The notes beneath the pieces were generated by a model that was not told the DNA's origin, ran no database searches, and worked only from the letters and a program-made list of their open reading frames with translations. From Vicinamibacterales bacterium (GTDB lineage: Bacteria > Acidobacteriota > Vicinamibacteria > Vicinamibacterales > SCN-69-37): a DNA stretch of 64,000 bases. Shown in pieces: positions 235 through 57,286 of the stretch. Both the position numbers and the translations under genes were made by a program. The DNA is taken from NCBI GenBank assembly GCA_035512575.1, contig DATKDT010000152.1, positions 965-64,964 on the forward strand, written 5' to 3'. Numbering within the stretch: position 1 is the stretch's first letter; each line of letters opens with the position of its first letter.

Positions 235-316
235 CCAGTCCAGTTCCAGTTCCAGTTCGCAGTTCTGTCGCGGTCACGGATCGTTGACGGAACTGAGAAC
301 CAGAACTGTAACTGTT
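235..316. repeat. Imperfect hairpin built from CCAGTT/GTTC hexamer tandem repeats (arms 235-267 and 290-316)
   Basis: Left arm is CCAGTCCAGTTCCAGTTCCAGTTCGCAGTTCTG. Right arm GAACTGAGAACCAGAACTGTAACTG is its imperfect reverse complement. The right arm overlaps the doxX-like stop codon. Confidence 0.8.
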
Positions 317-782
317 ACATGCTGCGAATGCGCTGGCGGCCGGCGAGCGCCGATTCGGCGCTGCGATCCAGCAGGCCGTCGATCGAGAGCTCACCCGCGC
401 CGCTGAGCGCCAGACAGACGCAGGATCCAATCAGGACGAAATGGAACTCGTAGCCGTGGCCGACGCCGGGCGTGAGCGCCCAGTTGATGAAGAAGCCGTG
501 CGCGATGTGGGCGACCCAGCCGGCCGCGGCCGTGCCGGCCGCAAGCGCGATGGCCGCCCCGCGCGTCCACGCGCCGAGAAAGACCATCAGCCCGCCGGCA
601 AGCTGCACCACACCCGAAACCACGGCGAGCGGATAGGCAGCGGGAAGGCCGAAATGCTCGTAGCGCGCCGCGGTGAACGCCAGGCCGGCGCCGCCGAAGA
701 CGCCGAACAGCGTCTGCGCCCCGTGCGCGATGAACACCAGGCCGACGGCCACGCGCAGCACGGTGAGACCCCAGCCAGCCAT
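315..782 (-). CDS. DoxX family membrane protein
   Basis: 155-aa ORF with four hydrophobic segments. N-terminus WGLTVLRVAVGLVFIAHGAQTLFG is typical of the DoxX family. ATG at 782, TAA at 315-317. Confidence 0.85.
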   Translation of the reverse strand: MAGWGLTVLRVAVGLVFIAHGAQTLFGVFGGAGLAFTAARYEHFGLPAAYPLAVVSGVVQLAGGLMVFLGAWTRGAAIALAAGTAAAGWVAHIAHGFFINWALTPGVGHGYEFHFVLIGSCVCLALSGAGELSIDGLLDRSAESALAGRQRIRSM

Positions 783-815
783 GGGGCCATTGTGCAGTAG
801 GATGGCCTTCCGTTC

Positions 816-842
816 CAGTTCCAGTTCCAGTTCTCAGTTCTG
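816..842. repeat. CCAGTT/GTTC tandem repeat, direct copy of 241-267
   Basis: CAGTTCCAGTTCCAGTTCTCAGTTCTG matches 241-267 at 26 of 27 positions. It lies in the divergent region between the doxX-like gene and the aminotransferase gene. Confidence 0.85.
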
Positions 843-858
843 CACACAGAGGCGCGCC

Positions 859-2136
859 ATGGACAGACGACGGTTTCTACGGCAGGCGGGCACGGCCGGT
901 GTGGTTGCGGCGGCGGCCTTCAGGGCTGACGGCCTCGCGCGGGTGCTCGCCGCCGGGCGCGACACGGCCGGGGCGGATCCCTCGGCCCTGGCGGCTGACG
1001 AGACATTCTGGCGCGAGATCCAGTCGGCCTTCACGCTCGACCGCACCATCATCAACCTGAACAACGGCGGCGTCTGCCCCAGCCCGCGCGTCGTGCACGA
1101 GGCGCTGAAGCGCTATCTGGACATCTCCAACCAGGCGCCCGTGTACCACATGTGGCAGGTGCTCGAGCCGAACATCGAGTCGGTGCGGCGCGCGCTCGCG
1201 GCGGAAGCCGGCTGCGGCGTCGAGGAGCTCGCGGTCACCCGCAACGCCAGCGAGGCGCTGCAGATCGCGCAGCTCGGCATCGACCTCGCGCCCGGCGACG
1301 AGGTGCTGTCCACCAACCAGGACTACGGCCGCATGCTCGACACCTGGGAGCAGCGCGTGCGCCGCGACCGCATCGTCCTCAACAAGATCGCGTTTCCGGT
1401 GCCGCCGCCGAGCCAGGCCGACCTCGTATCGCGGATCGAAAAGGGGATCACGCCGCGCACGAAGGTGCTGCACGTCTGCCACATCACGAACCTCACGGGC
1501 CACATTTTCCCGGTGCGGCAGATCTGCGACATCGCCCGCGCGCGCGGCATCGTGACGATCATCGACGGCGCGCACGCGTTCGGGCACTTTCCGTTCGCGC
1601 TCCGCGATCTCAACTGCGATTACTACGGCACGAGCCTGCACAAGTGGCTGCTGGCGCCCATCGGCACGGGGTTCCTGCACGTGCGGGCGGACCGGATTGC
1701 GAAGACGTGGGCCCTGCAGCCGACGGCGGCGTCGCGCGACGCCAACATCCGCAAGTTCGAGGAAATCGGGACGCACCCGGCCGCCAACCACAACGCCATT
1801 GCCGAGGCGCTGGTGTTCCATCAGGGCATCGGCATCGAGCGGCGCTACGCGCGGATGCTGTACCTGCGCAACCGCTGGATCGATCAGGTGAAGAGCGAGC
1901 CGCGCATCCGCATCCACACGAGCCTGCGGGAAGGCGAGTCGGGCGCGATCGGCACGGTGCAGATCACGGGCATGAAGACGCCCGAGGTCACCGCGAAGCT
2001 GTGGGAGCGCTGGCGCATCATTGCGACGCCGATCGTGCACGCGGAGTACGAGGGCGCGCGCGTGACGCCGAACGTCTACACCACGCTCGAGGAGATCGAC
2101 ACGTTCGCGGGCGCGCTGAAGACGCTCGCAACGTGA
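859..2136 (+). CDS. Class V aminotransferase / cysteine desulfurase-isopenicillin N epimerase-like PLP enzyme with twin-arginine (Tat) signal
   Basis: In-frame ATG at 859 within ORF 673..2136 gives MDRRRFLRQAGTAGVVAAAAF (Tat motif RRxFL). PLP-lysine context YGTSLHKWLLAP. The upstream 62 codons run through the repeat and look non-coding. Confidence 0.85.
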   Translation: MDRRRFLRQAGTAGVVAAAAFRADGLARVLAAGRDTAGADPSALAADETFWREIQSAFTLDRTIINLNNGGVCPSPRVVHEALKRYLDISNQAPVYHMWQVLEPNIESVRRALAAEAGCGVEELAVTRNASEALQIAQLGIDLAPGDEVLSTNQDYGRMLDTWEQRVRRDRIVLNKIAFPVPPPSQADLVSRIEKGITPRTKVLHVCHITNLTGHIFPVRQICDIARARGIVTIIDGAHAFGHFPFALRDLNCDYYGTSLHKWLLAPIGTGFLHVRADRIAKTWALQPTAASRDANIRKFEEIGTHPAANHNAIAEALVFHQGIGIERRYARMLYLRNRWIDQVKSEPRIRIHTSLREGESGAIGTVQITGMKTPEVTAKLWERWRIIATPIVHAEYEGARVTPNVYTTLEEIDTFAGALKTLAT

Positions 2137-2146
2137 GATGCGAAAC

Positions 2147-2423
2147 GTAAATGGTAAATGGTATATAGCATCGGCTATTGGCTATCGCTGCCGCTTCAGT
2201 GCGGCCGATAGCTCGATCGACACCTCCTCCCGGAATCTCGACGAGCCGAAGGCGAAGAAGAAGGCTTCTCCAATGAAAGCTAGCCGGCCGTGACGGGACG
2301 CGACAAACTCATGTGGGCGACAGGCGTGGCGATAGTCCTGTCGTTTGCTTTCTTCGCGTGGGTGGCGTTCCGCTAATCGTTTCGATCTTCCATAGACAAT
2401 GCTATTTACGATTTACCATTTAC
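2147..2423. repeat. About 280-bp intergenic element bounded by about 34-bp imperfect terminal inverted repeats (GTAAATG heptamer based)
   Basis: Left end is GTAAATGGTAAATGGTATATAGCATCGGCTATTGG (2147-2181). The reverse complement of 2390-2423 is GTAAATGGTAAATCGTAAATAGCATTGTCTATGG. The element fills the gap between two convergent stop codons. Confidence 0.75.
2311..2376 (+). CDS. Candidate 21-aa hydrophobic micro-protein (MWATGVAIVLSFAFFAWVAFR) inside the TIR-bounded element
   Basis: ATG..TAA read directly from the sequence. It forms a single predicted TM-like helix. No clear Shine-Dalgarno sequence, so it could be a chance ORF. Confidence 0.2.
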   Translation: MWATGVAIVLSFAFFAWVAFR

Positions 2424-2426
2424 ATT

Positions 2427-3044
2427 TCAGAAGTTAATCACGATCCCACCCGTCCACATCGATCCATCGCGCGACAGCCGCAGGTGGTCCATGAGCGACC
2501 CGGCGCCGGGGATGCCGAAGGCGCCCGCGCCGTGGTCCAGGCCGGGCTCGTCGTCGCCGAACCGGATGAACGTGTAGCGGTAGTCGGCGAACAGCGACGC
2601 CCGCGCTCCCAGCTTCAGGTCGCCGCCGAAGCCGGCGTGATATCCCATGCGGCGCACGGTGGACTGCGAGAGGACGTCGGCGCCCGACAGCGCCTCCATG
2701 CGCTGGGAGTACCAGCCCACGCCTCCAAGCAGATACGGCGCAATGGCCGCGCGCACCGGATAGAGCATCAGCGAGGCCTGGAGCGGATAGTCGCTGATCC
2801 GCACGGTCGCGTCGTCGCTCGTCGTGGATCGCCAGTCCATGGCCAGCTCGATCGCGGTGCGGGGCGACGTTTTCAGGCGGAGGGCACCGCCCGTGTAGCG
2901 GTCGCTGGCGGTGCCGAGCGCGGGATCGGGCCGCACGAAGCTCATGCGCGGGCCGACGCCGAGAACCTGCGCGGACGCGGGCGACGGAAGAAACGCGAGC
3001 GCCGAGAGGACCGCGAGCGCGGCCGCCGGACGGCAGATGTACAT
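2427..3044 (-). CDS. Outer-membrane beta-barrel protein (OmpW/OmpA-barrel-like porin family)
   Basis: Start at ATG 3044, preceded by GGAGG. Signal peptide MYICRPAAALAVLSALAFLPSPASAQ, alternating beta-strand pattern, and C-terminal aromatic residue (..GGIVINF). Confidence 0.75.
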   Translation of the reverse strand: MYICRPAAALAVLSALAFLPSPASAQVLGVGPRMSFVRPDPALGTASDRYTGGALRLKTSPRTAIELAMDWRSTTSDDATVRISDYPLQASLMLYPVRAAIAPYLLGGVGWYSQRMEALSGADVLSQSTVRRMGYHAGFGGDLKLGARASLFADYRYTFIRFGDDEPGLDHGAGAFGIPGAGSLMDHLRLSRDGSMWTGGIVINF

Positions 3045-3067: not shown

Positions 3068-3303
3068 CGGAGGTTCGGGTTGCACACTTTAGCAAGTTCG
3101 GGGGTTCGGAAGTTCGGGGGTTCGCTTGTCCCGGTTCGGCGAGCACGATCGGAAGCAGGAGGCGCTACCCTGCGACGAGCGACGGGCTGCACGCTGCGCT
3201 CCCCAGTACAACGTGCAGCTTTAACCCCCTGCTCCCGATCGAGCCCGCGAACCAGACCCGCGAACCTCCGAACTTCCGAACCCCGAACCTCCGAACTTCG
3301 AAC
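3068..3303. repeat. About 235-bp imperfect palindrome; outer arms are GTTCGGR tandem repeats and the centre holds an 8-bp stem hairpin (3186-3219)
   Basis: Left arm AAGTTCGGGGGTTCGGAAGTTCGGGGGTTCG...CCGGTTCGGCGAGCACGATCGGAAGCAGG pairs with right arm CCTGCTCCCGATCGAGCCCGCGAACCAG...CGAACCTCCGAACTTCCGAACCCCGAACCTCCGAACTTCGAAC. It exactly fills the gap between the OmpA-like stop codon and the OMP gene's SD. Confidence 0.8.
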
Positions 3304-3947
3304 TACGTCAGCACCTTGATGACGACGCGGCGGTTCTGCGCGCGGCCGTCGCGCGTCTTGTTGTCCGCGACCGGCTTCTCTTCGCCGAAGCTGATCACAT
3401 TCATCTTGTGCAGCGGCACCTGGTGCCGCTCGTAGAGGTAGCGCTTCACCTGCTCGGCGCGCTTCTCGCCAAGTTGCATGTTGTAGGCGTTGGAGCCGGT
3501 CGCGTCGGTGTGGCCTTCGATCTCGATCCACGCGCCGTTCGGATTGGCTTTCAGCTGATTGACGAGATTGTCGATCTCGGCCTTGGCCTCGTCCGGAATC
3601 TCGACGCGGTTCAACTTGAAGTTGCCCTTGTCTTCGCTGAGCGTGACCGAATAGACGAGCCGCTTCGAGGCGGCGTCGAGCGTTTCGACGCGCGTGTTCG
3701 CAATGTTGGCCGCGTTGCGCGCTGCCTCGGCCGTCATGCCGGCCGCGGCGGCCTTCTGATCGACCTCGGTGATGCGGCGCTCGTTGGCGCGCGTCCGCTC
3801 CTGTGTTTCCTCGACCGAACGGCCGAGCGTGTCGACCTTCGTGTTGACCTCGCCGACGCGTGTGTTCACGAACTTCTTCGACGCGCACGCGGTCGAGCCC
3901 GCGAGCACGAACGCCATCACCGGAACTGCCAGAACTATCCTGCGCAT
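3303..3947 (-). CDS. OmpA-family lipoprotein (coiled-coil N-region plus OmpA/MotB peptidoglycan-binding domain)
   Basis: ATG at 3947 with upstream GGAGGAG. Lipobox VLAGSTAC. C-terminal OmpA domain: IEGHTDATGSNAYNMQLGEKRAEQVKRYL...RAQNRRVVIKV. Confidence 0.85.
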   Translation of the reverse strand: MRRIVLAVPVMAFVLAGSTACASKKFVNTRVGEVNTKVDTLGRSVEETQERTRANERRITEVDQKAAAAGMTAEAARNAANIANTRVETLDAASKRLVYSVTLSEDKGNFKLNRVEIPDEAKAEIDNLVNQLKANPNGAWIEIEGHTDATGSNAYNMQLGEKRAEQVKRYLYERHQVPLHKMNVISFGEEKPVADNKTRDGRAQNRRVVIKVLT

Positions 3948-9796: not shown

Positions 9797-10978
9797 ATGC
9801 GTACGGATCCCCTGGCATTTCTGGGCGATGCACTCGCCTCGCTGAAAGAGCAGAACCTCTACCGCCGCCTCCGCATTCTCGACGACGAGCAGCGGGCAAC
9901 CACGCGATTCGACGGCCGCGAGGTCGTCAACCTCTCCTCCAACAACTACCTCGGCCTGACCACGCACCCCCGCCTGCGCGCGCAGTCGATCGCCGCCGTC
10001 GAGACGTACGGCGCCGGCTCCGGCTCCGTGCGGACGATCGCGGGGACGATGGCGATCCACATGGAGCTCGAGCGCCGGCTCGCGGCCTTCAAGAAGACGG
10101 AAGCCGTGGTGGTCTTTCAGAGCGGCTTCGCCGCCAACGCGGGCACCGTCTCGGCCATCCTCGGCCGCGACGATGTGATCGTCTCGGACGAGCTCAATCA
10201 CGCGAGCATCATCGACGGCGCCCGCCTGAGCCGCGCGGCCATCAAGGTCTTTCCTCACAAGGACGTGGACGCGGCGCGGAAGATCCTGCGCGACCTTCCC
10301 CCCGCGCAGAAGAAGCTGGTCATCACCGACGGCGTCTTCAGCATGGACGGCGATCTTGGCCCTGTGGCGGAGCTCGCCTCACTCGCCGAGGAATACGGCG
10401 CGATCATGATGGTCGACGACGCGCATGCGAGCGGCGTGTTCGGGCGCCACGGGCGCGGCACGATCGATCATTTCGACGCGCACGGCCGTGTCGACATCCA
10501 GGTGGGCACCCTGTCGAAGGCGATGGGCGCGCTCGGCGGCTACGTCGCGGGCACCCGCGACCTGATCGAGTTCCTGTACCACCGCGCGCGGCCGTTCCTC
10601 TTCTCGACCTCGCATCCCCCGGCCGTCGCCGCCGCGTGCCTGGCGGCGCTCGACGTGCTGGAGCAGGAGCCGCAGCTGATTGAACAGCTCTGGGACAACA
10701 CTCGTTTCTTCAAAGAGGGGCTGGCGGCGCTGGGGTTCAACACGGGCATCAGCGAGAGCCCGATCACGCCCGTCATCGCGGGCGAGGGCGCGCTGGCCAT
10801 GAAGCTCTCGGATCGGCTCTTCGAGGAAGGCGTCTTCGCGCAGGGCATCGCGTATCCCACCGTGGCGCGCGACAAGGCCCGCGTGCGCACCATCGTGACC
10901 GCCACGCACACGCGCGAGGAGCTGCAGTTCGCGCTGGACACCTTCGCGAAGGTCGGACGGGAGCTCGGGATTATTTGA
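9797..10978 (+). CDS. kbl: Glycine C-acetyltransferase (2-amino-3-ketobutyrate CoA ligase) / alpha-oxoamine synthase family
   Basis: 393 aa with SNNYLGL, DELNHASIIDG, DDAHASG and the PLP-lysine motif GTLSKAMG. Confidence 0.85.
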   Translation: MRTDPLAFLGDALASLKEQNLYRRLRILDDEQRATTRFDGREVVNLSSNNYLGLTTHPRLRAQSIAAVETYGAGSGSVRTIAGTMAIHMELERRLAAFKKTEAVVVFQSGFAANAGTVSAILGRDDVIVSDELNHASIIDGARLSRAAIKVFPHKDVDAARKILRDLPPAQKKLVITDGVFSMDGDLGPVAELASLAEEYGAIMMVDDAHASGVFGRHGRGTIDHFDAHGRVDIQVGTLSKAMGALGGYVAGTRDLIEFLYHRARPFLFSTSHPPAVAAACLAALDVLEQEPQLIEQLWDNTRFFKEGLAALGFNTGISESPITPVIAGEGALAMKLSDRLFEEGVFAQGIAYPTVARDKARVRTIVTATHTREELQFALDTFAKVGRELGII

Positions 10979-10987: not shown

Positions 10988-11199
10988 AGGTTCCACGGGT
11001 TCCACGGGTTCCGTAGGTTCCAGGGTTCGGTTCCCTGGGTTCACGGGTTCACGGGTTCACGGGTTCACGGGTTCACGGGATTCGAACCCGCGGAACGTTC
11101 GAACGCGCGGAACGTCCGAACCTTCGGAACCGTTCGCGAACTCTCGGAACGAGAGAACCGAACCGATGGAACCCGTGGAACCCATGGAACCAATGGAAC
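10988..11199. repeat. About 210-bp imperfect palindrome made of GGTTCCACG / GGGTTCAC tandem repeats and their inverse
   Basis: Left half carries GGTTCCACG x2-3 then GGGTTCAC x5. Right half carries CGGAAC variants ending in GGAACCCGTGGAACCCATGGAACCAATGGAAC. It fills the whole kbl to SpoIIE-phosphatase intergenic gap. Confidence 0.85.
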
Positions 11200-18264: not shown

Positions 18265-18266
18265 AG
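18232..18266. repeat. AAGACTG-type heptamer tandem repeat at the overlap of two convergent stop codons
   Basis: CCTCAAGACGCAAGACTGAAGACTGAAGACTAAAGG. It contains the GT2 stop (18262-18264) and the lipid-kinase stop (18261-18263). Confidence 0.75.
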
Positions 18267-29037: not shown

Positions 29038-29044
29038 TCCGCCG

Positions 29045-35936: not shown

Positions 35937-35972
35937 ATTCTGTATTCTGCGTTCTGTGTTCTGCGTTCTGTC
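35937..35972. repeat. GTTCTGY heptamer tandem repeat between the NusG-paralog stop and the dus start
   Basis: GATTCTGTATTCTGCGTTCTGTGTTCTGCGTTCTGTC. Confidence 0.8.
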
Positions 35973-44867: not shown

Positions 44868-48749
<3,882 letters not shown>

Positions 48750-48752
48750 CGT

Positions 48753-49307
48753 CTACTGACCACTCTCTACCAACTGTTCCTTCATCTTTTCCAGCTGACG
48801 CGCGACGCTGCCGTCGTACACCACCGAGCCCACGCGCGCGACGACGCCGCCGAGGATCGCGGCGTCGACCTTGGACTCGACGAGCACCTGGCGGCCCGTG
48901 GCGCGGCCCAGCGCGTCGGCCACCGCCTTCGTCCGATCGGCGTCGAGCGGCACCGCCGTCGTCACCTCCGCGCGCACGATCTGGCGGTGATCCATCACGC
49001 GCTCGCCGTACGCGCGCGCGATGGCCGCAACGAGGCCGAGCCGATCGCGGTCGGCGAGCAAGCCCAGCGTGCGCGCGACGGGATCGGAGACGGCGCCCGC
49101 CTGTGCGACGAGCGCGTCGATGAGCGCGCGCTTCTTCGCGGCGGGCACCGCGGGATTCGTGATCACGGCGTGCAGGCCGGCGTTGCCCGAGACGAGCGCC
49201 GCGAAGTCGTCGAGCTCGCGTCCAATGCGATCGAGATCGCCGTTCTGCCGCAGCACGACGTCGAAGAGCGCGCGGGCGTAGCGGCGGGCCGCGGTGGCCG
49301 GGGTCAT
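48753..49307 (-). CDS. atpH: F1 ATP synthase delta (OSCP) subunit
   Basis: 184 aa. N-terminus ARRYARALFDV, and its position between atpF and atpA. Confidence 0.85.
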   Translation of the reverse strand: MTPATAARRYARALFDVVLRQNGDLDRIGRELDDFAALVSGNAGLHAVITNPAVPAAKKRALIDALVAQAGAVSDPVARTLGLLADRDRLGLVAAIARAYGERVMDHRQIVRAEVTTAVPLDADRTKAVADALGRATGRQVLVESKVDAAILGGVVARVGSVVYDGSVARQLEKMKEQLVESGQ

Positions 49308-49888
49308 GCGCGCACCTGCGTGAGATAGCGGTCGATGAGCCGCGTCTGATCCGCCGGCGTGATGTCGCGCTCGATGCGCGCCCGGGCGACGGCGGAGGCC
49401 TGCGCGGCGGTTTCTTCCACCAGCGCGCGGCGCGCCAGCCGGTACTGCTGATCGATTTCGCGCCGCGTCTGCGTGAGCAGGCGCTCGCGCTCGGCCGCGG
49501 CGGTCGCCTTGATGCGGGCCTGCTCGGCCTGCACTTCCCCGGCGCCGCGCGTCTTGAGCGCCTCGAGCTCGGCGGGCAGCGCCGCGAGCCGGCTTTCGAT
49601 GCGGGCGAGATCCGCCGACGCCTGCTCACGCGTGGCCTTCGCTTCGACCAGGGCGTGCCGGATCTGCTGGCTGCGGTCGACGAGATAGTTGGCGAGCGGG
49701 CGGCGGAGGAAGTGCACGAGGATGGCGACGAGCACCGCGAAGTTGAACAGCTTCGCGATGGTGGACATGATGCCGCCGCCTTCGGCCTCGGCCGCCAGCG
49801 CCTCCGACGGCGCGATCAGCACCACGATCAGCGCGAGTACAGCGCGGCGCGCAAGCGGCGCGCGACGGATTGCCATCCAGTTCTTCAT
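49304..49888 (-). CDS. atpF: Fo ATP synthase subunit b
   Basis: One TM segment followed by a long Ala/Arg/Glu-rich coiled coil. ATGA overlap with atpH. Confidence 0.8.
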   Translation of the reverse strand: MKNWMAIRRAPLARRAVLALIVVLIAPSEALAAEAEGGGIMSTIAKLFNFAVLVAILVHFLRRPLANYLVDRSQQIRHALVEAKATREQASADLARIESRLAALPAELEALKTRGAGEVQAEQARIKATAAAERERLLTQTRREIDQQYRLARRALVEETAAQASAVARARIERDITPADQTRLIDRYLTQVRA

Positions 49889-49922
49889 GAACCCGTTACC
49901 TGACGTTCGGAAGGAGCGGCGC

Positions 49923-50348
49923 CTACGACGCCTGGCGTCCCAGAATGCGGCCCGCCGCCTCGGCGCCGAGCTTCTCGGCGTCGCCGCGCAGCTGGGCGCG
50001 CGCCTGGTCGACGTCGGCCTGCAGTTTCGCGCTCGCCTCGGCCAGCGCCGACGCCGCGTCGGCGCGCGTCTCGTCGAGCAGCTTCGCGCGCTCGTCGTTG
50101 GCGACCCGCCGCATGTCGTCCATCTGCCGGTAGACCTCGCCGCGCGCTTCGGCGGTCTTCCGTTCGAATTCCTCGGTCGCCGTGCGCGCTTCGGCCGCGG
50201 CGCGCTCGGCCAGCGCGCGCGCCGAATCGATCGCCTGCTGGCGCGCTTCCATCGTGTTCGTCAGCGGCTTGATCAACAGTCGATTGACGACGAAGGTCAG
50301 GACGAGGACGAAGAAGATGACCCAGAGCAGGGAAAGATTCAGTTCCAA
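49923..50348 (-). CDS. Fo ATP synthase subunit b' (second b-type subunit)
   Basis: 141 aa with N-terminal TM LLWVIFFVLVLTFVVNRLL followed by a coiled coil. TTG start. Confidence 0.7.
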   Translation of the reverse strand: MELNLSLLWVIFFVLVLTFVVNRLLIKPLTNTMEARQQAIDSARALAERAAAEARTATEEFERKTAEARGEVYRQMDDMRRVANDERAKLLDETRADAASALAEASAKLQADVDQARAQLRGDAEKLGAEAAGRILGRQAS

Positions 50349-50421
50349 AACCTAAAATTTATATCACACGTGGCGGGCCCTTGTACCCATCTTCACAAGC
50401 ACTTGCGCGGATGAAACCCCC
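50349..50421 (-). promoter_or_regulatory. AT-rich putative promoter region of the atpF'-atpC operon
   Basis: The minus strand reads ..CACGTGTGATATAAATTTTAGGTT before the TTG start. It is one of the few AT-rich stretches in the window. Exact -35/-10 elements were not resolved. Confidence 0.3.
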
Positions 50422-51468
50422 TCACAGAAGCCGGACGTGCACGCCCGGCTCCGCCTCGACGGCACGGCCCACGGCATGCCCGCCGGCGCCTGCGGCGGCC
50501 AGATGGGCCCTAAGTTCTTCAAGATGAGCGGGTTGTACTGAAATCAGCAGCCCGCCGGACGTCTGCGGGTCAAACGCCACGAGCCGGCGCGCGCGGCTGA
50601 CGGTTGAGGCGGTCTGCACGCCTCCTCCGAAGTGGGCGTCGTTACTGCGGCCGCCGCCCGGCAGGTTGTCCTCCGCAAGCGCTTCGACGCCCTCGAGCAT
50701 CGGCAGCGCTGCGGCGTCGAGCACCAGCGTCACGCCGCTCGCCGCCGCCATCTCCGAGCCATGCCCGGCAAGGCCGAAACCGGTGATGTCGGTACACGCC
50801 CGGACGGCGCCGGGCGGCAGCTTCGCGATCGCTTCCGCGGCGCCCCGGTTGAGCGCGGTCATGCTGGCGACCGCCGCGTCGGCCGACGCCTGCGGCGCGC
50901 GATCGAATTTCATGGCCGTCGCAATGATGCCGGTGCCGAGCGCCTTGGTGAGCACCAGCACGTCGCCTGGCCGCGCGCCGCTGTTGGTGAGTACTTGCGT
51001 CGGATCGATCGCGCCGGTGATCGCATAGCCGAACTTGATCTCCACATCGGACACCGTGTGCCCGCCAAGCAGCGCGACGCCCGCTTCGCGCAGCGTGTCG
51101 TGGCCGCCGAGAAAGATCTGGCGGATCACGTCGGCGCCGGGACCGTCCTTCGCCGGCAGCGCCGCAATCGCCAGGGCCGTGAGCGGCCGGCCGCCCATCG
51201 CGTAGACGTCGCTCATCGCGTTGGCGGCGGCAATGCGTCCGTACGTATAGGGATCGTCGACAACCGGCGTGAAGAAATCCACCGTCTGCACCAGCGCCGG
51301 GCCCCCCTCCCACCTGTACACACCCGCATCGTCCGCGGTCCTGAAGTCGACGAGGACACGGTCATCGGTGGTGTGAGGAATGGCGCCCAGCACCTGGGCG
51401 AGCTCGCCCGCGGCGAGTTTGCTCGCTCAACCCGCGCAGGCGGCGTAGCTGGTCAGTCGTCTGGTCAT
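50422..51468 (-). CDS. selD: Selenide, water dikinase SelD, selenocysteine-containing form (in-frame UGA at 51427-51429)
   Basis: Reading from ATG 51468 gives MTRRLTSYAACAG-U-ASKLAAGELAQVLGAIPHTTDD..., in frame with ORF 50422..51393. The UGA sits at the catalytic Cys/Sec position with Lys at +3, as in the E. coli/H. influenzae GAG(C/U)GCK motif. Confidence 0.85.
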
Positions 51469-52316
51469 TCGGTCAACTTTTCGAAAATGCGGTTCAACTC
51501 GTCTTCGCTCGTGAACTCTATCTGGATTCGTCCTCCTTTACCCCGCCGCACGATCTCGACGTCGGTGCCGAGCGCGAAGCGCAGTTTCTCTTCGGCGGCG
51601 CGCGTGTTCGGGTCCTTCTTCCTTTCCGGCTTCGCCGGCGCCGCGGGCTCGCCCTGGCGTTTGACGAACGCCTCGGTCTCGCGCACCGACAGGCCTTTGG
51701 CCACGATGTCTCGCGCGAGCTGGCGCTGCGCGGCGGGCGACTCCAGCCCGAGCAGGGCGCGCGCGTGGCCCATCGAGAGCGATCCGTCCGACACGAGATT
51801 GCGTACTTCGCCGGGCAGCCGCAGCAGGCGCAGCGTGTTGGCGACCGACGATCGATCCTTTCCTACCGCCGCCGCAATCGCGTCCTGGGTCAGGTGCAGC
51901 TCGTCGGCCAGACGCCGATACGCCGAGGCTTCTTCGATTGGATTGAGATCGTCGCGCTGAAGATTCTCGACGAGCGCCACTTCGAGCAGCCGGTCATCGG
52001 GCACGTCGCGGACGATGACGGGCACCTTCAGGAGGCCGGCGCGCTGGGCCGCGCGCCAGCGGCGCTCGCCCGCGATGATCTCGAATCGATCGCCGGCGCG
52101 GCGCGCCAGAATCGGCTGGATGATGCCGTTGCTGCGAATCGACTGCGCGAGATGCTCGAGGCTCGCCTCGTCGAACACGCTGCGCGGCTGCTGTGGATTG
52201 GGCGTGAGCCGATCGAGATCGATCTCGAACGGCTTGTCGCGCGGCGGCGCGTCGCCGGCCGCGTCGGGAATCAGCGCGCTCAGCCCGCGTCCGAGCGCGG
52301 GACGTTTCTCAGCCAT
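51465..52316 (-). CDS. parB: Chromosome partitioning protein ParB/Spo0J
   Basis: ATG 52316 within ORF 51465..52397. RGLSALI, GERRWRAA and the HTH LTQDAIAAAVGKDRSSVANTLRLL. Confidence 0.9.
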   Translation of the reverse strand: MAEKRPALGRGLSALIPDAAGDAPPRDKPFEIDLDRLTPNPQQPRSVFDEASLEHLAQSIRSNGIIQPILARRAGDRFEIIAGERRWRAAQRAGLLKVPVIVRDVPDDRLLEVALVENLQRDDLNPIEEASAYRRLADELHLTQDAIAAAVGKDRSSVANTLRLLRLPGEVRNLVSDGSLSMGHARALLGLESPAAQRQLARDIVAKGLSVRETEAFVKRQGEPAAPAKPERKKDPNTRAAEEKLRFALGTDVEIVRRGKGGRIQIEFTSEDELNRIFEKLTE

Positions 52317-52329
52317 CACGACAACTCCA

Positions 52330-52392
52330 AACTCAGAACACAGAACGTAGAACTCAGAACGCCGAACTCCGAACGCCGAACGCCGAACGTCG
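52330..52392. repeat. CAGAACR / GCCGAAC heptamer tandem repeats at the parA-parB junction
   Basis: AACTCAGAACACAGAACGTAGAACTCAGAACGCCGAACTCCGAACGCCGAACGCCGAACGTCG. It overlaps the last ~12 codons of parA. Confidence 0.85.
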
Positions 52393-53160
52393 AGCAAGGA
52401 ACTCTTTCGCGAGCGCGACGTGGGCTTCGGCGCCGCGGCTCTTCACGTCGTAGAGGATGGCCGGCAGGCCGTGGCTGGGCGCCTCGCCGAGCCGGATGTT
52501 GCGCGGGATCACGGTCTCGTAGACCTTGTCGCCGAAGTACTCGCGGATGTTGGCGCCGACCTGCTGTCCCAGGTTCGTGCGCTCGTCGTACATCGTCAGC
52601 AGCACGCCTTCGATCTCGAGGCGCGGATTGAGCGCGCCGCGCACGCGCTTGATGGTCGAGACGAGCTCGGCGATGCCCTCGAGCGCGAAGTACTCGCAGT
52701 TGAGGGGAATCAGCACGCTGTCGGCGGCGACGAGCGCGTTGAGCGTGAGCAGGCCCAGCGAGGGTGGCGAGTCGATCAGGATGTAGTCGAATGCCGGGCG
52801 CAGGGGCGTGAGCACGCGCTCGAGCCGGCGCTCGCGCTCAGGCAGCGAGACGAGCTCGATTTCGGCGCCCGTGAGGTTGCGGTCGGCGGGCATCACGAAG
52901 AGCCGCTCGATCATCGAGCGCACGATGCGGTCGCCGTGCCGGGTGTCCTCGCCGGTAATGGCCTCGTAGACCGTGCCGCCGGGCCCGGTCTGGTTCTTGA
53001 GGCCGAGGCCGCTCGTCAGGTTGGCCTGGGGGTCCATGTCGACGACGAGCACCTGCTGGTCGGCGAGGGCGAGGGAGGCGGCCAGATTGATGGCGGTGGT
53101 GGTCTTGGCGACGCCACCTTTCTGGTTGGCGACGGCAATGATCCTCGCTGTTTTGGTCAT
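52354..53160 (-). CDS. parA: Chromosome partitioning ATPase ParA/Soj
   Basis: Deviant Walker A IAVANQKGGVAKTTT. The C-terminal tail RRSAFGVRSSAF is encoded by the heptamer repeat. Confidence 0.9.
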   Translation of the reverse strand: MTKTARIIAVANQKGGVAKTTTAINLAASLALADQQVLVVDMDPQANLTSGLGLKNQTGPGGTVYEAITGEDTRHGDRIVRSMIERLFVMPADRNLTGAEIELVSLPERERRLERVLTPLRPAFDYILIDSPPSLGLLTLNALVAADSVLIPLNCEYFALEGIAELVSTIKRVRGALNPRLEIEGVLLTMYDERTNLGQQVGANIREYFGDKVYETVIPRNIRLGEAPSHGLPAILYDVKSRGAEAHVALAKEFLARRSAFGVRSSAF

Positions 53161-53241
53161 ACAACAGAAAACAAGATGACTGATCGGTCCCGCAGCAAAG
53201 TGTAGGCGGGTTGGGCGTGGGGCGTCAAATCAATTGATGGG

Positions 53242-53922
53242 TTAGACGTCCAGTGTTCCACGTGAAACACCCCGTCTGCCAACCGGACGCTTATCGAGAA
53301 TGATGAGCTGGCTTCTAAGACTCTCCACCAGCGGCACGGCTTCGGAAAAGGCAATGGTCGGCGGAGTGTTGATGTCTCCCACGGTTCCGGTCGGCCGGAA
53401 GAGAAAGAACCTGCCCCCGGGCTTCACGAAGGCCTGAATGCTTCCCAGTGTCCGCACGTCGACGCGAACGGCGCGCAGGCTCAGGATGTCGGCAAATTCA
53501 TGCATTCCTGGGTCTGAGAGCAGAGTCTCGAACCGGCTGGTCCAGACCTGCGCTCTCAGGCCGAGCGTACGCACTGCTTCACGAAGAAACGCGGATTTGC
53601 GGACTTTTGCCTCCACCATGGTCACGCTGAGCTGAGGACTCGCGATCGCGAGCGGAATGGCGGGCGACCCGCCGCCGGAACCAATGTCGATGAGAGTAGC
53701 GTCCCTGGGCCGGACGGATCGGGCGGCCAGGAGGGGCTCGATCAGGAGGCGGTCCACAGCCTCGTCGCCGCCCGCCAGGTTGAGCGCCGTGAGGTTGATC
53801 TTGGCGTTCCAGCGCGAGAGCAGATCGTAGTAAATCTCGAGCTTGGCGGCAGCCGCCGGAGCCACGGCGAGACCGGCCTTCTGCGCCCTCCGTCTCAGCC
53901 TGCCCTGGAAGTCACGCACCAA
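53242..53922 (-). CDS. rsmG: 16S rRNA (guanine527-N7)-methyltransferase RsmG (GidB)
   Basis: SAM-binding motif LIDIGSGGGSPAIPLAI, and its position between mnmG and parA. TTG start. Confidence 0.85.
   Translation of the reverse strand: MVRDFQGRLRRRAQKAGLAVAPAAAAKLEIYYDLLSRWNAKINLTALNLAGGDEAVDRLLIEPLLAARSVRPRDATLIDIGSGGGSPAIPLAIASPQLSVTMVEAKVRKSAFLREAVRTLGLRAQVWTSRFETLLSDPGMHEFADILSLRAVRVDVRTLGSIQAFVKPGGRFFLFRPTGTVGDINTPPTIAFSEAVPLVESLRSQLIILDKRPVGRRGVSRGTLDV
53254..53269. other. parS: parS centromere-like site (TGTTCCACGTGAAACA)
   Basis: Exact 16/16 match to the widely conserved ParB-binding palindrome TGTTNCACGTGAAACA. It lies in the last codons of rsmG, upstream of parA. Confidence 0.85.
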
Positions 53923-53935
53923 GGCAGCATAAGTG

Positions 53936-53968
53936 GATTTGTTGATTTGTTGATCTGTTGATTTATCG
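53936..53968. repeat. GATTTGTT octamer tandem repeat at the mnmG-rsmG junction
   Basis: GGATTTGTTGATTTGTTGATCTGTTGATTTATCGG. It contains the mnmG stop codon. Confidence 0.8.
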
Positions 53969-55765
53969 GCCGATTCGCGCCGCTACGATCGCCACTGCGG
54001 CTGGTGTAACACCGGGAACGCGCGACGCCTGCCCGAGGGTTGCGGGCCGCACGGACGACAGCCGCTCGACCACCTCGCGGGAGAGTCCCGCCACCCCGGC
54101 GTACTGGAAATCATCCGGAATTTCGCAGGCCTCGTTGCGGGCCGCGCGCGCGATCTGGATGCGCTGACGGCGCAGATAGCCCTCGTACTTCAGCTCGGTT
54201 TCGAGACTGGCCAGATCAAGCGGAGTCGTTCCCGCCGCCAGCGCCAGCGCCGGAAGCACCGAGGCGAGCGGAACATCCGTCCGGCGCAGGGCCTGGTCGG
54301 CCGGCAGCTTCCTGTCGGCAATGAACACATGCGACCGGGCAATCCTCGTGTGGTTGTCGGCATGCCGCTCCCGGCGCTCCTCGAACGCCGCCCATCTGCG
54401 ATCGTCCACGAGTCCCGCGGCGCGGCCGGCCGGCGTCAGGCGGAAATCAGCGTTGTCCATCCGCAGCAGGAGGCGGTGTTCGGCGCGCGACGTGAACATC
54501 CGGTAGGGCTCGAGGCATCCTCTGGTCGTCAGATCGTCGATCAGGATGCCGATATAGGCCTCGTCACGCCGCAGGGAGATAGCAGTTTCCGCGCGTGCGG
54601 TTCTTGCCGCGTTGATGCCCGCCATCAGCCCCTGCGCCGCGGCTTCTTCGTACCCGGACGTGCCGTTCACCTGGCCCGCCAGAAACAGGCCGGGCACACG
54701 CTTCGACTCGAGCGTGGGCCGGAGCTCCGTCGGCTGGATGAAGTCGTACTCGACGGCGTAGCCCGGGCGCAGCATCACGGCGGACTCCAGGCCCGGAAGC
54801 GCGTGGATGATTTGCAGCTGTGCGTCGCGCGGCAGGCTCATGGAGCAGCCGTTGACGTAAATCTCGTCGACGTCGAGCCCTTCCGGCTCGAGGTAGATCT
54901 GGTGGCGCTCCTTGTCGGGGAAGCGCATGACCTTGTCTTCGAACGACGGGCAGTAGCGCGGCCCGATGCCCGCAATCCGGCCGTTATAGAGCGGAGATCG
55001 AGCGATATTGTCGCGGACGAGGGCGTGCGCTTCGGCTGACGTGTGCAGCACGTGGCAGGCGATCTGCGGCCGCGAGATCCCGGTGGTGAGAAACGAGAAG
55101 GGGACAGGCGGGTCGTCGCCAGGATCCGCCCGGAAGCGGCTGAAATCGATGCTGCGGCGATCCAGGCGCGGCGGCGTGCCGGTCTTGAGCCGGCCCCATG
55201 AAACCCCTGTCGACTTGAGCGATTCGGCAAGCGCGCGCGACGGCGGCTCGCCGGCGCGGCCAGACGGTATCTGCTCGTCGCCGATGTGCACGAGGCCGTT
55301 CAGGAACGTGCCGGCGGTGATGACCAGCGCCGGCGCATGCAGCTCGCGGCCGTCTTCGAGCGCCAGGCCCGAGACGCGTCCGCCGCGCGTGAGAATGGCG
55401 CCGGCCGGGCCGATCACCCACTCGATGCCGGCCGTGGCGTCGAGTGTGTCGCGCACCCACGCGCCGTACCGGCGCTTGTCGGCCTGCGCGCGCGGCGACC
55501 ACACGGCAGGCCCGCGGCTGCGGTTGAGCAGCTTGAACTGGATCCCCGTCGCGTCGATCGCCAGGCCCATCAGGCCTCCCATGGCGTCGATCTCACGGAC
55601 GAGATGCCCCTTCGCGGTGCCGCCGATCGCGGGATTGCACGGCATCAGCGCAACGGTGTCGCGCGACAGCGTGCACAGCGCGACGTGGCAGCCGAGCCGC
55701 GCGGCGGCGTGCGCCGCTTCGACTCCCGCATGGCCGGCGCCGACGATGATGACGTCGAAAATCAA
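53963..55765 (-). CDS. mnmG: tRNA uridine 5-carboxymethylaminomethyl modification enzyme MnmG (GidA)
   Basis: FAD motif [15 protein letters not shown]. 600 aa. TTG start. Confidence 0.95.
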
Positions 55766-55768
55766 GGA

Positions 55769-55882
55769 GACAGAATACAGAACATAAGAACGTAGAACGC
55801 AGAATCCTGACGTACGACGTCAAAGCGCGCTCGGCGCGCCAGACGCATTCTGTGTTCTGTGTTCTATATTCTGTGTTCTAAC
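55769..55882. repeat. About 115-bp hairpin element: CAGAAYA repeats, a GC-rich central mini-hairpin, then inverse TGTGTTC repeats
   Basis: GACAGAATACAGAACATAAGAACGTAGAACGCAGAAT ... GCGCGCTCGGCGCGC ... CATTCTGTGTTCTGTGTTCTATATTCTGTGTTCTAAC. It fills the mnmE-mnmG junction. Confidence 0.8.
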
Positions 55883-55884
55883 AC

Positions 55885-57240
55885 CTACTTCCCAATACAG
55901 AAGCTCTGAAAGATGTGCCGCAGGATGTCGTCCGTGGTGCGCCGGCCGACGATCTCGTCGAGGAAGGCGCGCGCTTCCTGCAGATCGGCAAGCGCGAGCT
56001 CCTCCGGCGCGCCGTGGGCGAGCGCGTCGGCGCCGCGCGACAGCGATTCGTGCGCGCGCTCGAGCAGCGCGAGATGACGCTGGTTGGTGACGGCCGGCGC
56101 ATCGCGGCGTGGATCGGATCCGGCCAGCACGGAGGCCATCGCGTCGCGCAACTGCGACATGCCGGCGTAGCTGCGCGCCGACACGTGCACGACCGGCGCG
56201 CCGTACGTGTCGTGCCCCGGCGCCGTGGGAAGGTCCGCTTTGTTGACGGCAATCACGCGCGGTCGCGCGGCCGTCGACCGCATCAACGCGGCATCATCGT
56301 CGTGCGGCGGAGTCGAGCCGTCGATGACGAGGACGACACAGTCGGCGACGCCCGCCGCGCGCTCGGCGCGCCCGACGCCTTCCGATTCGATCAGATCGCT
56401 CGTCGATCGCTGTCCCGCCGTATCGACGAGCGTCACGGCGAGCCCATTGATGTCCACGAGGTCCGTGACCAGATCGCGCGTGGTGCCCGGCACGCTGGTG
56501 ACGATCGCGCGATCCGCGCCTGCCAGCGCGTTGAAGAGGCTCGACTTTCCCGTATTCGGCCGTCCGGCGAGCACCACCTGCGCGCCTTCGCGAATCACGC
56601 GCCCTTCGCGGCCGCGCGCGATCAACGCAGCGAGTGCATCGGCAATCGCCTTTGCCTCGGCCGCCGCGTCTCCCGGCGTCACGAAGTGATAGCCCTCGTC
56701 TGGAAAATCGACGCTCGCCTCGAGCTTCGCGATCAGATCGAACAGCGGCGCGTCGACCGCGGCAATCGCGCGGGTGAGCGTGCCTTCGAGCTGATCGAAG
56801 GCGGCCCGCGTCTGCAGCGGCGTGACGGCATCGACGAGATCCGCGACCGCCTCCGCCTGCGCGAGGTCGATCCTACCGTGAAGAAAAGCTCGAAGGGTGA
56901 ACTCGCCCGGCTCCGCCAGACGCGCGCCGGCCGCGACGGCCGCTGCGACAAGGCGGTCGAGCAGCACGGGATTTCCGTGTCCGCTCAGTTCGACGACATG
57001 CTGGCCGGTGTAGGAATGCGGCGCGGGAAAACTGGTCGCGACGACTTCATCGATGGGCGATCCGGCATCATCGACGGCCCTCGCGAGCGTCGCGTGCCTG
57101 GCCTCGAGCGACGGGGTGCCTGGCAGGAGTGCCGCCGTGACGCCGGCCGCGTCCGGGCCGCTGATCCGGACGACCCCGATCCCCCCGCGCCCCCGCGGCG
57201 TCGCAATCGCAACGATGGTGTCATCGGTACTGAACACCAT
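55885..57240 (-). CDS. mnmE: tRNA modification GTPase MnmE (TrmE)
   Basis: DTIVAIATP, G1 motif GRPNTGKSSL and the C-terminal CIGK motif. Confidence 0.95.
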   Translation of the reverse strand: MVFSTDDTIVAIATPRGRGGIGVVRISGPDAAGVTAALLPGTPSLEARHATLARAVDDAGSPIDEVVATSFPAPHSYTGQHVVELSGHGNPVLLDRLVAAAVAAGARLAEPGEFTLRAFLHGRIDLAQAEAVADLVDAVTPLQTRAAFDQLEGTLTRAIAAVDAPLFDLIAKLEASVDFPDEGYHFVTPGDAAAEAKAIADALAALIARGREGRVIREGAQVVLAGRPNTGKSSLFNALAGADRAIVTSVPGTTRDLVTDLVDINGLAVTLVDTAGQRSTSDLIESEGVGRAERAAGVADCVVLVIDGSTPPHDDDAALMRSTAARPRVIAVNKADLPTAPGHDTYGAPVVHVSARSYAGMSQLRDAMASVLAGSDPRRDAPAVTNQRHLALLERAHESLSRGADALAHGAPEELALADLQEARAFLDEIVGRRTTDDILRHIFQSFCIGK

Positions 57241-57286
57241 TCTGCATTCTGTGTTCTGTGTTCCTGTGTTCTGTGTTCTGTGTTCT
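57241..57286. repeat. TGTGTTC heptamer tandem repeat (about 6 units) exactly filling the jag-mnmE junction
   Basis: TCTGCATTCTGTGTTCTGTGTTCCTGTGTTCTGTGTTCTGTGTTCT. It lies between the jag TAA (57287-57289) and the mnmE ATG (57240). Confidence 0.85.

Follow-up and report, generated by a model that had tools for sequence, protein, structure and literature searches.

Heptamer-dominated tandem repeat arrays at gene junctions in Vicinamibacterales genomes

What are the short tandem repeats that lie between genes in a 64,000-nt stretch of the genome of a soil Vicinamibacterales bacterium (phylum Acidobacteriota; assembly GCA_035512575.1, contig DATKDT010000152.1, positions 965 to 64,964; hereafter the window)? 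Arrays of 6- to 9-nt units, most of them with a GTTC or GAAC core, occupy its gene junctions, including junctions inside operons such as atpG-atpD and jag-mnmE-mnmG, and had been put forward, from the sequence, as an unrecognized element class that might enhance translation. We find that these inter-gene repeats are real and far beyond chance, that they are long simple sequence repeats (LSSR) of the heptamer-dominated intergenic kind, and that they are a lineage trait with largely genome-specific units. As to what maintains them, we lean somewhat towards near-neutral, fast-turnover DNA-level repeats that are tolerated between coupled genes, in preference to regulatory signals that are conserved; as a by-product, some copies may modulate coupling or mRNA stability.

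Repeat arrays in the window and in related genomes

Arrays were detected with Tandem Repeats Finder on the window and by direct reading of the sequence. Genes were called with a home-made codon log-odds model, so that distances to start codons are only approximate, and key genes were checked against NCBIfam and Pfam. All of the arrays named in the original prediction were recovered, with coordinates agreeing within a few bases, and NCBIfam and Pfam bore out the identities given for the flanking genes atpG/atpD, parA/parB, rsmG, mnmG, mnmE, jag, and dusB; the other flanking genes encode an UpxY/RfaH-type antiterminator, DoxX, an OmpA-family protein, an outer-membrane beta-barrel protein, two aminotransferases, and a SpoIIE-type phosphatase. 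The 29 gaps of at least 25 nt, about 4.6 kb of non-coding DNA in total, contain 12 arrays with a period of 5 to 10 and at least three copies (about 0.19 arrays per kb, or 12 per 64 kb), whereas dinucleotide-preserving shuffles yield 0.24 ± 0.59 (maximum, 3).

One of the 12 counted gap arrays (34067-34099) was later shown to be coding, and this CGGCGAC "array" therefore stands outside the finding. It falls in a stretch (33558-34556) at first taken for a 1-kb gap, which is an open reading frame whose product, rich in Arg, Gly, and Pro and of very low complexity, contains PRENR and GRPPGG repeats; at the DNA level, repeat periods within it are 15, 18, 21, and 45 nt.

GTTC or GAAC is present in 10 of the 12 units, compared with 5% expected for units drawn at random with matching composition (p = 6e-12; corrected for 136 strand-symmetric tetramers, about 8e-10). 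The tetramer occurs at 19 per kb in gaps, at 5.5 per kb in gaps with the arrays masked, and at 8.3 per kb in coding DNA. The core is dominant and not universal, since the GTAAATG/ATTTAC, GATTTGTT, and AAGACTG features lack it. These three features, (GATTTGTT)3.6 and (AAGACTG)3.4 among them, and an arm at 290-314 were absent from the original prediction. One heptamer, TTCTGTG, recurs at four sites (35938, 46331, 55848, and 57247), and its inverse occurs at 52330 and 55769.

Exact placement at gene ends, also claimed from the start, holds for the atpG-atpD, jag-mnmE, and dusB arrays, which abut codons (0 to 6 nt), but not for the array at 808-842, which is about 26 nt from the nearest start; nor is the parA-parB array purely intergenic, because it runs into the 3' end of parA. 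The view that such junctions normally span only a few nucleotides is supported by the closest relative, in which atpG and atpD are 9 nt apart and jag and mnmE overlap.

A census of these repeats covered 80 relatives' loci (labelled L001 onwards), found by means of the window mnmE, to which the same repeat finder and gene caller were applied; with the window, this makes 81 sources and 1.48 Mb, 87.8% of it coding. The best mnmE match, with 82% amino-acid identity, comes from a Vicinamibacterales metagenome-assembled genome, and the 79 others (53 to 61% identity) are mostly labelled Vicinamibacterales or Acidobacteriota. Of 191 arrays, 139 (73%) lie in the 12% of DNA that is non-coding; their periods are mainly 7 (84 arrays), 8 (33), and 9 (18). 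Gap arrays number 131 in all sources, compared with 1.15 in shuffles. At least one intergenic array was found in 45 of the 81 sources, and the density is uneven: L064 and L027 have 9 per 21 kb, and many sources have none. Pairs of array gaps share recurrent 5-mers in 24.5% of cases within a genome and in 5.8% between genomes, a difference that none of 2,000 label permutations reached. Different units dominate in different genomes, CGGGATC in L064, GCTAC in L057, AGCTG in L027, and GTTC in the window.

That the arrays belong to no described class does not hold, because they match LSSR, the cyanobacterial short tandemly repeated repetitive (STRR) sequences, the Xanthomonas GGGAATC repeats, and the Beggiatoa TAACTGA repeats; the described intergenic heptamer repeats have the same period, likewise favor intergenic DNA, and lie near stop and start codons as these arrays do. 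Like LSSR, STRR, and Xanthomonas-type repeats, they consist of head-to-tail units with the heptamer commonest, are in excess between co-directional genes, form inverted pairs, and vary between genomes. The LSSR of Mrazek et al. (2007), as outlined in PMC4679880 and PMC4692102, have units of 5 to 11 nt with heptamers most abundant, are intergenic, and are typical of large high-G+C genomes of non-pathogens, with polymerase slippage as the proposed origin; the STRR heptamers of cyanobacteria were described by Mazel et al. (1990). Heptamer predominance and intergenic site are common to both and to the window. As far as the outlines of these two classes go, they are general statistical categories, and the stop-hairpin-start architecture and genome-specific cores seen here fall outside their definition.

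The closest likeness in detail is to Xanthomonas, where about 185 GGGAATC arrays per genome are about 90% intergenic; most have co-directional open reading frames on either side, and few have divergent ones (Rehm et al. 2015, PMC4692102). There, 70 to 75 convergent inverted pairs are capable of forming stem-loops, the G-rich strand is found no more than 50 nt past the stop codon or overlaps it, and the C-rich strand no more than 50 nt ahead of the start codon; number and sequence vary extensively between species at the same junction, and no functional gene class has been linked to the repeats (PMC4692102). The window arrays share with these and with the Nostoc GGGGA(C/T)T repeats the tandem heptamers, a conserved 4- to 5-nt core among otherwise variable positions, inverted pairs, and the G-rich-first asymmetry (PMC4692102). 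They differ in having units of 6 to 9 nt around one core, mostly without the G-tracts of the Xanthomonas and Nostoc units; in several unit families per genome and cores that differ within one order of the phylum Acidobacteriota; and in density, which is roughly 0.04 arrays per kb in Xanthomonas. In particular, a run of three G's per unit, as a G-quadruplex would need, is lacking in TTCTGTG, CCAGTT, GATTTGTT, and GAAC-type units; such runs exist in the GTTCGGGG-type array at 3094-3124 and in the GGGTTCAC units at 10989-11079, and most of the relatives' units have none. Because most units lack a run of three G's, the quadruplex explanation proposed for Xanthomonas and Nostoc cannot be general.

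The TAACTGA repeats of marine Beggiatoaceae lie within a few nucleotides ahead of start codons, in gaps that have no ribosome-binding site, and a translational role has been proposed for them (MacGregor 2015, PMC4679880). They resemble the window arrays as heptamer arrays (2 to 6 copies) just before start codons, those of essential genes included, but consist of one fixed heptamer across distant taxa, are almost all direct (with one inverted set), and occur in AT-rich hosts (PMC4679880).

We found no description of such arrays in Vicinamibacterales or Acidobacteria in the literature, including in a search for Vicinamibacter with repeats. Vicinamibacterales add a third phylum-level example of heptamer-dominated intergenic repeats to a record that begins with STRR in 1990 and in which such repeats were reported as common in large high-G+C genomes in 2007. 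Common across the phyla are the period of about 7 nt, the inverted pairing, the flush stop/start placement, and the asymmetry with the G-rich arm first.

Other repeat families offer partial likenesses. REP, BIME, and REPIN sequences are likewise extragenic, hairpin-forming, and genome-specific, and occur as inverted doublets and decayed singlets near stop codons between co-directional or convergent genes; inverted doublets plus singlets are also seen here, as hairpin gaps and as arm deletions of 33 and 39 nt. In REPINs, doublets reportedly occur together with singlets that result from arm loss, and REPINs depend on a RAYT (Y1) transposase. A REP, however, is a 20- to 40-nt imperfect palindrome with a consensus, and the arrays consist of 6- to 9-nt units without conserved termini. 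A single REP family was rejected, as the arrays share no full-length consensus, their loops and flanks differ, and the short units alone recur; a MITE was rejected because filled and empty sites show no target-site duplication and the internal loops in the window are unrelated. The original judgment that the arrays are not one conserved REP or MITE sequence is thus sound, as is the judgment that they are not CRISPR, given their head-to-tail units of 6 to 9 nt and lack of spacers; CRISPR repeats are about 23 to 50 nt long and alternate with unique spacers of similar length. The mycobacterial MIRU are tandem repeats in intercistronic operon gaps whose ends overlap stop and start codons, with translational coupling kept. 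Their units are 46 to 100 bp long and contain small open reading frames, unlike the arrays, which have units of 6 to 9 nt and no start codons of their own.

Hairpin architecture and turnover

In its full form, an element occupies a gap of about 65 to 120 nt that reads stop codon, 0 to 6 nt, an array of three to six units, a short loop, the inverse array, 1 to 16 nt, and start codon; among about 60 examples, the stop codon is often supplied by the first unit of the array. That paired inverse arrays would form long hairpins had been foreseen, and folding agrees: in the window, energies range from -41 to -149 kcal/mol (z, -5 to -10.7), and in the 81 sources the 25 gaps with two detected arrays have a median z of -7.6 relative to shuffles. 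Among 64 single-array gaps, 48% also fold with z < -3, because a degenerate partner arm is present. Hairpins, and not open leaders, are the prevailing form.

Co-directional gaps hold 129 of the 139 intergenic arrays. The median array lies 23 nt from the stop codon and 43 nt from the start codon, with many at 0 to 6 nt from the former or 1 to 16 nt from the latter. The arms show a modest asymmetry: G exceeds C in 29 stop-proximal arms versus 13 with the reverse, and C exceeds G in 31 start-proximal arms versus 15. As a palindrome reads alike on both strands, this asymmetry (G-rich arm first) belongs to the element itself and carries no information on which way it is transcribed.

At atpD, mnmE, and dusB, the arrays do form, as first described, a C/A-rich (ACAGAAC)n stretch of the mRNA immediately ahead of the start codon, and they are predicted to be unstructured (minimum free energy [MFE], 0 to -1.6 kcal/mol). 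These leaders and the parA-parB array look like half-elements. At least 120 metagenome contigs (27 to 72% G+C) carry GTTCTGNGTTCTGNGTTCTG, none of them syntenic with the window among the matches listed. Among the same listed matches, 31 (GTTCTGN)n arrays on high-GC contigs could be placed, 27 of them in intergenic DNA, and the 17 in co-directional gaps read GTTCTG on the mRNA in 8 cases and CAGAAC in 9; because both orientations occur, the C/A-rich leader orientation of the window is no general rule.

Selection on RNA was assessed from sense and antisense folding energies: a hairpin selected as RNA should be more stable on the transcribed strand, because G-U pairs become A-C mismatches in the complement. 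The sense strand is the more stable in 18 array hairpins and the antisense strand in 22 (p = 0.35), so that there is no sense bias, whereas structured gaps without arrays favor the sense strand 36:18 (p = 0.009). In this respect, the array hairpins look like DNA palindromes. No promoter or terminator consensus was found within the arrays, whose hairpins are not followed by a U-run, and Rfam gave no family at the gathering threshold anywhere in the window; in the relatives, the array hairpins end at the start codon without a T-run. Intrinsic terminators were rejected, as no consensus terminator coincides with an array and the sole nearby site (3073-3052, minus strand) is a separate hairpin. This classical terminator-like hairpin, CCTCCGATACCTGTGTCGGAGG followed by CTTTTTC, separates the 210-nt array palindrome from the beta-barrel ATG.

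Comparison of orthologous junctions, another proposed check, was possible with L001, the closest relative, which is syntenic with window positions 46141-64000 at 80 to 87% nucleotide identity and stands at about 82% as a whole. Unit numbers do differ at parA-parB and mnmG-rsmG, and three of the five shared-junction arrays are absent in L001 (Table 1). TTCTGTG is missing there at three of four covered sites (atpG-atpD, jag-mnmE, and mnmE-mnmG), parA-parB alone having a GTTC-core array.

Repeat number and sequence likewise differ at shared junctions in five further genome groups. L054 lacks a whole arm that L073 has (33 nt), and L041 lacks one that L055 has (39 nt), in genomes that are 94 to 97% identical, which indicates that single arrays originate as halves of hairpins. 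In L030, L054, and L073, an unrelated hairpin about as long takes the place of the L039 jag-mnmE hairpin, between flanks that are 93 to 97% identical. With increasing distance, most elements are lost: four hairpins of 93, 99, 134, and 97 nt in L022 correspond to gaps of 2, 3, 0, and 3 nt in L066. Growth in place is seen in an array with 3-4 units in L028 and 11 in L068. The length of one junction is 24 nt in L020, 36 nt in L080, and 83 nt in L064; L020 and L064 have the same unit there, and L080 has a related one (CGGGAGT). Target-site duplications were sought in the comparisons of filled and empty sites, and none was found. Hairpins that are retained are 81 to 92% identical, compared with 86 to 95% at third codon positions of the flanking genes; their evolution is neutral or slightly faster and proceeds mostly by substitution. 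The elements can enter 0- to 3-nt gaps inside essential operons, and they turn over at about the neutral rate.

The jag-mnmE gap could be followed through 51 genomes, where it measures up to 10 nt in 5, 11 to 40 nt in 13, 41 to 130 nt in 27, and more than 130 nt in 6. Array hairpins account for at least 11 of the 27 gaps of 41 to 130 nt and represent six or more unit families. Different units at the same junction in many related genomes offer a natural comparative system for distinguishing selfish, neutral, and regulatory repeats.

Three further observations concern the relatives. An octamer array, (AGATCANN)n, occupies the same position, about 2.4 kb upstream of mnmE in a large gap, in five genomes (L020, ~7710; L027, ~7650; L028, ~7594; L064, ~7628; L068, ~7631), with its unit kept, unlike most arrays. 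In L072 (1184-1361), a run of about 23 C's stands beside a (GAAGGGG)n array within a hairpin gap. Finally, about 170 nt 3' of array hairpins are conserved in L020 (15867-16099), L064 (15918-16158), and L080 (13741-13986) and were called non-coding; the stretch (...ATG GTC AGC TGC GCG GGT TGA GCG AGC AAA...) resembles the 5' end of a gene with an in-frame TGA and may be a selenocysteine-containing selD, the gene caller stopping at the TGA.

Weighing the explanations

If the arrays are near-neutral repeats, they would grow and shrink by replication slippage, a second arm would be gained or lost in one step (through template switching at palindromes or through deletion), and units would spread among the gaps of one genome by a copying process. 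Transcribed inside operons, arrays would persist where their harm is small, in the spacers of translationally coupled genes. A flush hairpin would hold the stop and start codons adjacent at its base, so that terminating ribosomes could reach the next start, and an open C/A-rich array, being unstructured, would leave the downstream start reachable for ribosomes finishing the upstream gene. We favor this reading because of the three of five arrays absent in L001, the drift of retained elements at about the synonymous rate, the loss or swapping of arms and hairpins between close genomes, and the absence of a sense bias. Changes of the slippage type are seen at parA-parB (about 10 versus 4 to 5 units) and mnmG-rsmG (3.6 versus 4.9). 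Hints of copying come from the irregular tail of the two CCAGTT arrays, a similar loop in two L064 hairpins, and the presence or absence of whole hairpins between relatives.

Several points weigh against this reading. Its main weakness is that pure slippage leaves unexplained the shared core and the same heptamer at four junctions, when L001 lacks it at three of its four covered sites; the same unit at several junctions is not produced by independent slippage, and a copying process or sequence-specific selection is therefore needed. Whether units are 6, 7, 8, or 9 nt long, the GTTC core is retained, which resembles constraint on it. (For per-position conservation in heptamer arrays, 2,233 of 5,000 simulations reached the observed value in an underpowered test.) The stop-to-start flush geometry is very regular and, together with fewer Shine-Dalgarno-like motifs, would fit a selected coupling role: such 5-mers are rarer in genes after array gaps (6% versus 14%; p = 0.035), a soft result, as start calls are approximate. 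At jag-mnmE, two unit families are kept across deep divergence, AGCTNTC in L014, L039, and L052 and TGGTGGT in L011, L041, and L055. Moreover, retained arrays exceed third codon positions in identity at mnmG-rsmG (75% versus 50%) and jag-mnmE (68 to 70% versus 57 to 65%), values that are inflated by the ease with which repeats align.

Some of these points would suit selected translational elements, an explanation that we consider improbable yet the strongest of the rivals. Open C/A-rich arrays would then be standby or enhancer leaders that act independently of a Shine-Dalgarno sequence, and hairpins would be devices for coupling or for processing and stability; as coupling devices, they would hide the downstream start until a ribosome terminating upstream melts the base, and as processing or stability hairpins, they would set the expression ratios of neighboring cistrons. 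The near-zero folding energies of the atpD, mnmE, and dusB leaders, 2 to 6 nt from the start codon, agree with such a role, as do the AGGA variants at a suitable distance from the ATG in the atpD array, the hairpins flush with both stop and start codons, the rarity of Shine-Dalgarno-like 5-mers after array gaps, and the identity of the arm beside the start codon, C-rich about twice as often as G-rich. The jag-mnmE junction has an array hairpin, with differing units, in at least 11 of 51 genomes, and MacGregor proposed the same role for the TAACTGA repeats (PMC4679880). As a conserved function, however, translation enhancement is not favored by the L001 comparison, in which a plain AGGA spacer precedes atpD and jag overlaps mnmE, nor by the near-synonymous rate of retained elements, the arms and hairpins lost or swapped between near-identical genomes, the lack of a sense-strand stability bias that other structured gaps do show, or the occurrence of the same heptamer in both mRNA orientations on other contigs. 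Because unit sequences differ between genomes, there is no shared sequence signal. Individual arrays may have a leader, enhancer, or coupling role.

Next in rank, and also doubtful, is the proposal that the arrays are non-autonomous mobile hairpins similar to REPINs or MITEs, copied by a genome-encoded enzyme (for example, a RAYT-type Y1 transposase) for which the core would be the recognition sequence. Genome-specific unit families would be expected of such elements, as would the same heptamer at four or five window junctions and its absence from three of the four covered L001 sites, the L022 hairpins of 93 to 134 nt where L066 has gaps of 0 to 3 nt, the coexistence of doublets with singlets from arm loss, and the symmetric Watson-Crick pairing of the hairpins. 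Two L064 hairpins have a similar loop, AAGAG(N)GCTCTT, and the two CCAGTT arrays have an irregular tail in common. On the other side, filled and empty sites reveal neither target-site duplications nor conserved termini, loops are unrelated among the window copies, a unit length of 6 to 9 nt around one core is unexpected for copies of one element, and the intermediate sizes of 24, 36, and 83 nt and the expansion from 3-4 to 11 units point to local growth. No transposase came to light in the 64 kb of this genome, in which no search aimed at one was made. In a more speculative version, to which we give slightly less credence, the arrays would be distinct self-propagating palindromes inserted precisely between coupled genes, with the core as the recognition site of a co-evolving enzyme or RNA-binding protein; if so, the flush stop-hairpin-start geometry would let them invade essential operons (atp, jag-mnmE-mnmG) with coupling unbroken.

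Very unlikely, in our view, is that the arrays are binding sites for a GTTC-recognizing protein, either LexA, whose box in Acidobacterium and Alphaproteobacteria is GTTC-N7-GTTC, or an RNA-binding protein that reads a 4-nt core every 6 to 9 nt. The presence of GTTC or GAAC in 10 of 12 arrays despite differing unit lengths would fit, and positions 1 to 4 and 6 of the Xanthomonas heptamer are likewise kept (PMC4692102). LexA-box arrays were rejected, however, as GTTC-N7-GTTC has 2 matches in the window versus 1.8 expected, neither from array unit spacing (one, at 11127-11141, falls in an irregular inverse-array stretch); core spacings in the arrays are N2 to N5, unrelated cores occupy the same junctions in other genomes of the order, and the arrays lie inside operons and not at promoters. 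Mis-assembly of low-complexity sequence, which would have undone the original prediction, can be dismissed with near certainty, because equivalent arrays occur in 45 of 81 independent sources, including short-read bins, 1- to 7-Mb contigs, and chromosome-level records, orthologous arrays recur in related assemblies, and the window arrays are imperfect and fit exactly between start and stop codons that are intact, one of them even being translated as a gene tail.

Individual features of the window

Table 1. Array features of the window, with the corresponding junction of the closest relative (L001) for positions 46141-64000
Feature	Position	Strand	Setting	Basis	Junction in L001
(CCAGTT)~5 array	235-267		start-proximal (3') hairpin arm in gap between short-chain dehydrogenase fragment (3-179, -) and DoxX (315-782, -); detected at 235-265	Tandem Repeats Finder, sequence	
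Inverse arm (GGAACTGAGAACCAGAACTGTAACTG)	290-314		pairs with 235-267; flush with DoxX stop codon at 315	sequence, fold	
(TTCCAG)~5.5 array	808-842		divergent gap between DoxX (-) and class V aminotransferase (+); detected at 808-840	Tandem Repeats Finder, sequence	
(GTAAATG)2.4 at start of 46-nt inverted-repeat left arm	2142-2187		5 nt past aminotransferase stop; no GTTC core		
Right arm ending in (ATTTAC-type)3.7	2383-2428		flush with stop of outer-membrane beta-barrel gene (2427-3044, -)		
(GTTCGGRR)~3.6 array (GTTCGGGG-type)	3094-3124		hairpin base between OmpA-family (3303-3920, -) and beta-barrel (2427-3044, -) genes		
Inverse array (CCGAACYY)~6	3256-3304		overlaps OmpA-family stop codon by 2 nt		
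(GGTTCCACG / GGGTTCAC)~11 array, also GGTTCACG units	10989-11079	+	10 nt past aminotransferase stop (gene 9797-10978)		
Inverse arrays (TTCGAACCCGCGGAACG, GAACCCATG and similar)	11081-11199	+	end 9 nt before SpoIIE-type phosphatase start 11209		
(AAGACTG)3.4	18243-18266		in glycosyltransferase 3' end, coded tail ...ARLKTED*; no GTTC core		
(TTCTGYR)4.9 on + strand, (CAGAAYR)n on mRNA	35938-35971	-	overlaps UpxY/RfaH-type antiterminator stop		
(TTCTGTG/TCCTGTG)4.6	46331-46362	-	fills entire 32-nt atpG-atpD gap		TAG AGGAACGTA ATG, plain Shine-Dalgarno spacer (9 nt)
~10 heptamers, CAGAACN then GCCGAAC (+ strand)	52323-52402	-	parA-parB junction, running into parA		4-5 GTTYRRM heptamers
(GATTTGTT)3.6, (AACAAATC)n on mRNA	53936-53964	-	between mnmG and rsmG; no GTTC core		(ACCAAATC)4.9, concerted unit change
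(CAGAAYR)~6	55769-55812	-	119-nt mnmE-mnmG hairpin, start-proximal arm on mRNA; adjoins mnmG TTG start		~40 nt, array-free
(TTCTGTG)4.6	55848-55879	-	other mnmE-mnmG hairpin arm, 5 nt from mnmE stop		
(TTCTGTG)~6, (AGAACAC)n on mRNA	57241-57286	-	fills entire 46-nt jag-mnmE gap; Tandem Repeats Finder 57247-57286		genes overlap (GTGA)

On the mRNA, the atpG-atpD junction reads AACACAGAACACAGGACACAGGACACAGAAGC and then ATG, with two AGGA variants (MFE, 0); its array is 2 nt from the start codon and overlaps the stop codon. The jag-mnmE array begins 0 nt from the jag stop and ends 6 nt before the mnmE ATG (MFE, 0). The mnmE-mnmG element (55766-55884) folds with -50.9 kcal/mol (z, -6.1), and the loop between its arms contains two small GC-rich hairpins. 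The array at 35938-35971 ends 4 nt before a probable TTG start of dusB at 35933 (MFE, -1.6 kcal/mol); with this later start, the DusB profile match begins at profile position 15.

The parA-parB array reads GUUCGGC...GUUCUGA in mRNA orientation, and its translation gives a new ParA tail, ...RRSAFGVRSSAF*. As the array extends into parA, the C-terminus of ParA (52354-52400, minus strand; ...EFLARRSAFGVRSSAF) is encoded by heptamers, and ParA of L001 ends in ...EFLARRRSAEF. Arrays thus remodel gene ends, both by supplying stop codons and, at parA, by adding a C-terminal tail, and they will confuse start-codon prediction in the Vicinamibacterales genomes that carry them. The (AAGACTG)3.4 array likewise overlaps the stop codon of a convergent gene.

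Near the start of the window, positions 225-314 fold with -40.7 kcal/mol (z, -5.0). The array at 808-842 closely resembles that at 235-267, including the irregular tail CNCAGTTCTG; because this tail is common to both CCAGTT arrays, 808-842 appears to be a duplicated copy. The DoxX gene is flanked on both sides by these near-identical direct TTCCAG copies, with the common tail TCCAGTTCCAGTTCCAGTTC[G/T]CAGTTCTG, which suggests either that the array was duplicated or that the gene was inserted into one.

The GTAAATG/ATTTAC inverted pair frames the convergent gap 2137-2426; its arms are 80% complementary, and 2137-2430 fold with a z of -4.6. The 195-nt center of this inverted repeat contains a 21-codon open reading frame (2311-2376, plus strand) for a hydrophobic peptide (MWATGVAIVLSFAFFAWVAFR*). 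At 3080-3310, the whole gap is one palindrome of about 210 nt with arrays at its base (-149 kcal/mol; z, -10.7), and the paired arrays at 10979-11208 fold with -125 kcal/mol (z, -7).

Two further features stand apart from the arrays. Three DnaA-box-like octamers (TTTCCACA, TGTGGAAA, TGTGGAAA) lie within 30 nt (60462-60491), just upstream of dnaA (60540-61883), in what is likely the replication origin region; tandem arrays are absent from this region. A G+C-rich inverted repeat of about 70 nt (27004-27073 and 30600-30670; 88 to 93% complementary), with GGGGCCCC motifs and unrelated to the GTTC arrays, brackets a 3.5-kb segment with four called genes (27094-30550) and could be another repeat family or the ends of a mobile segment.

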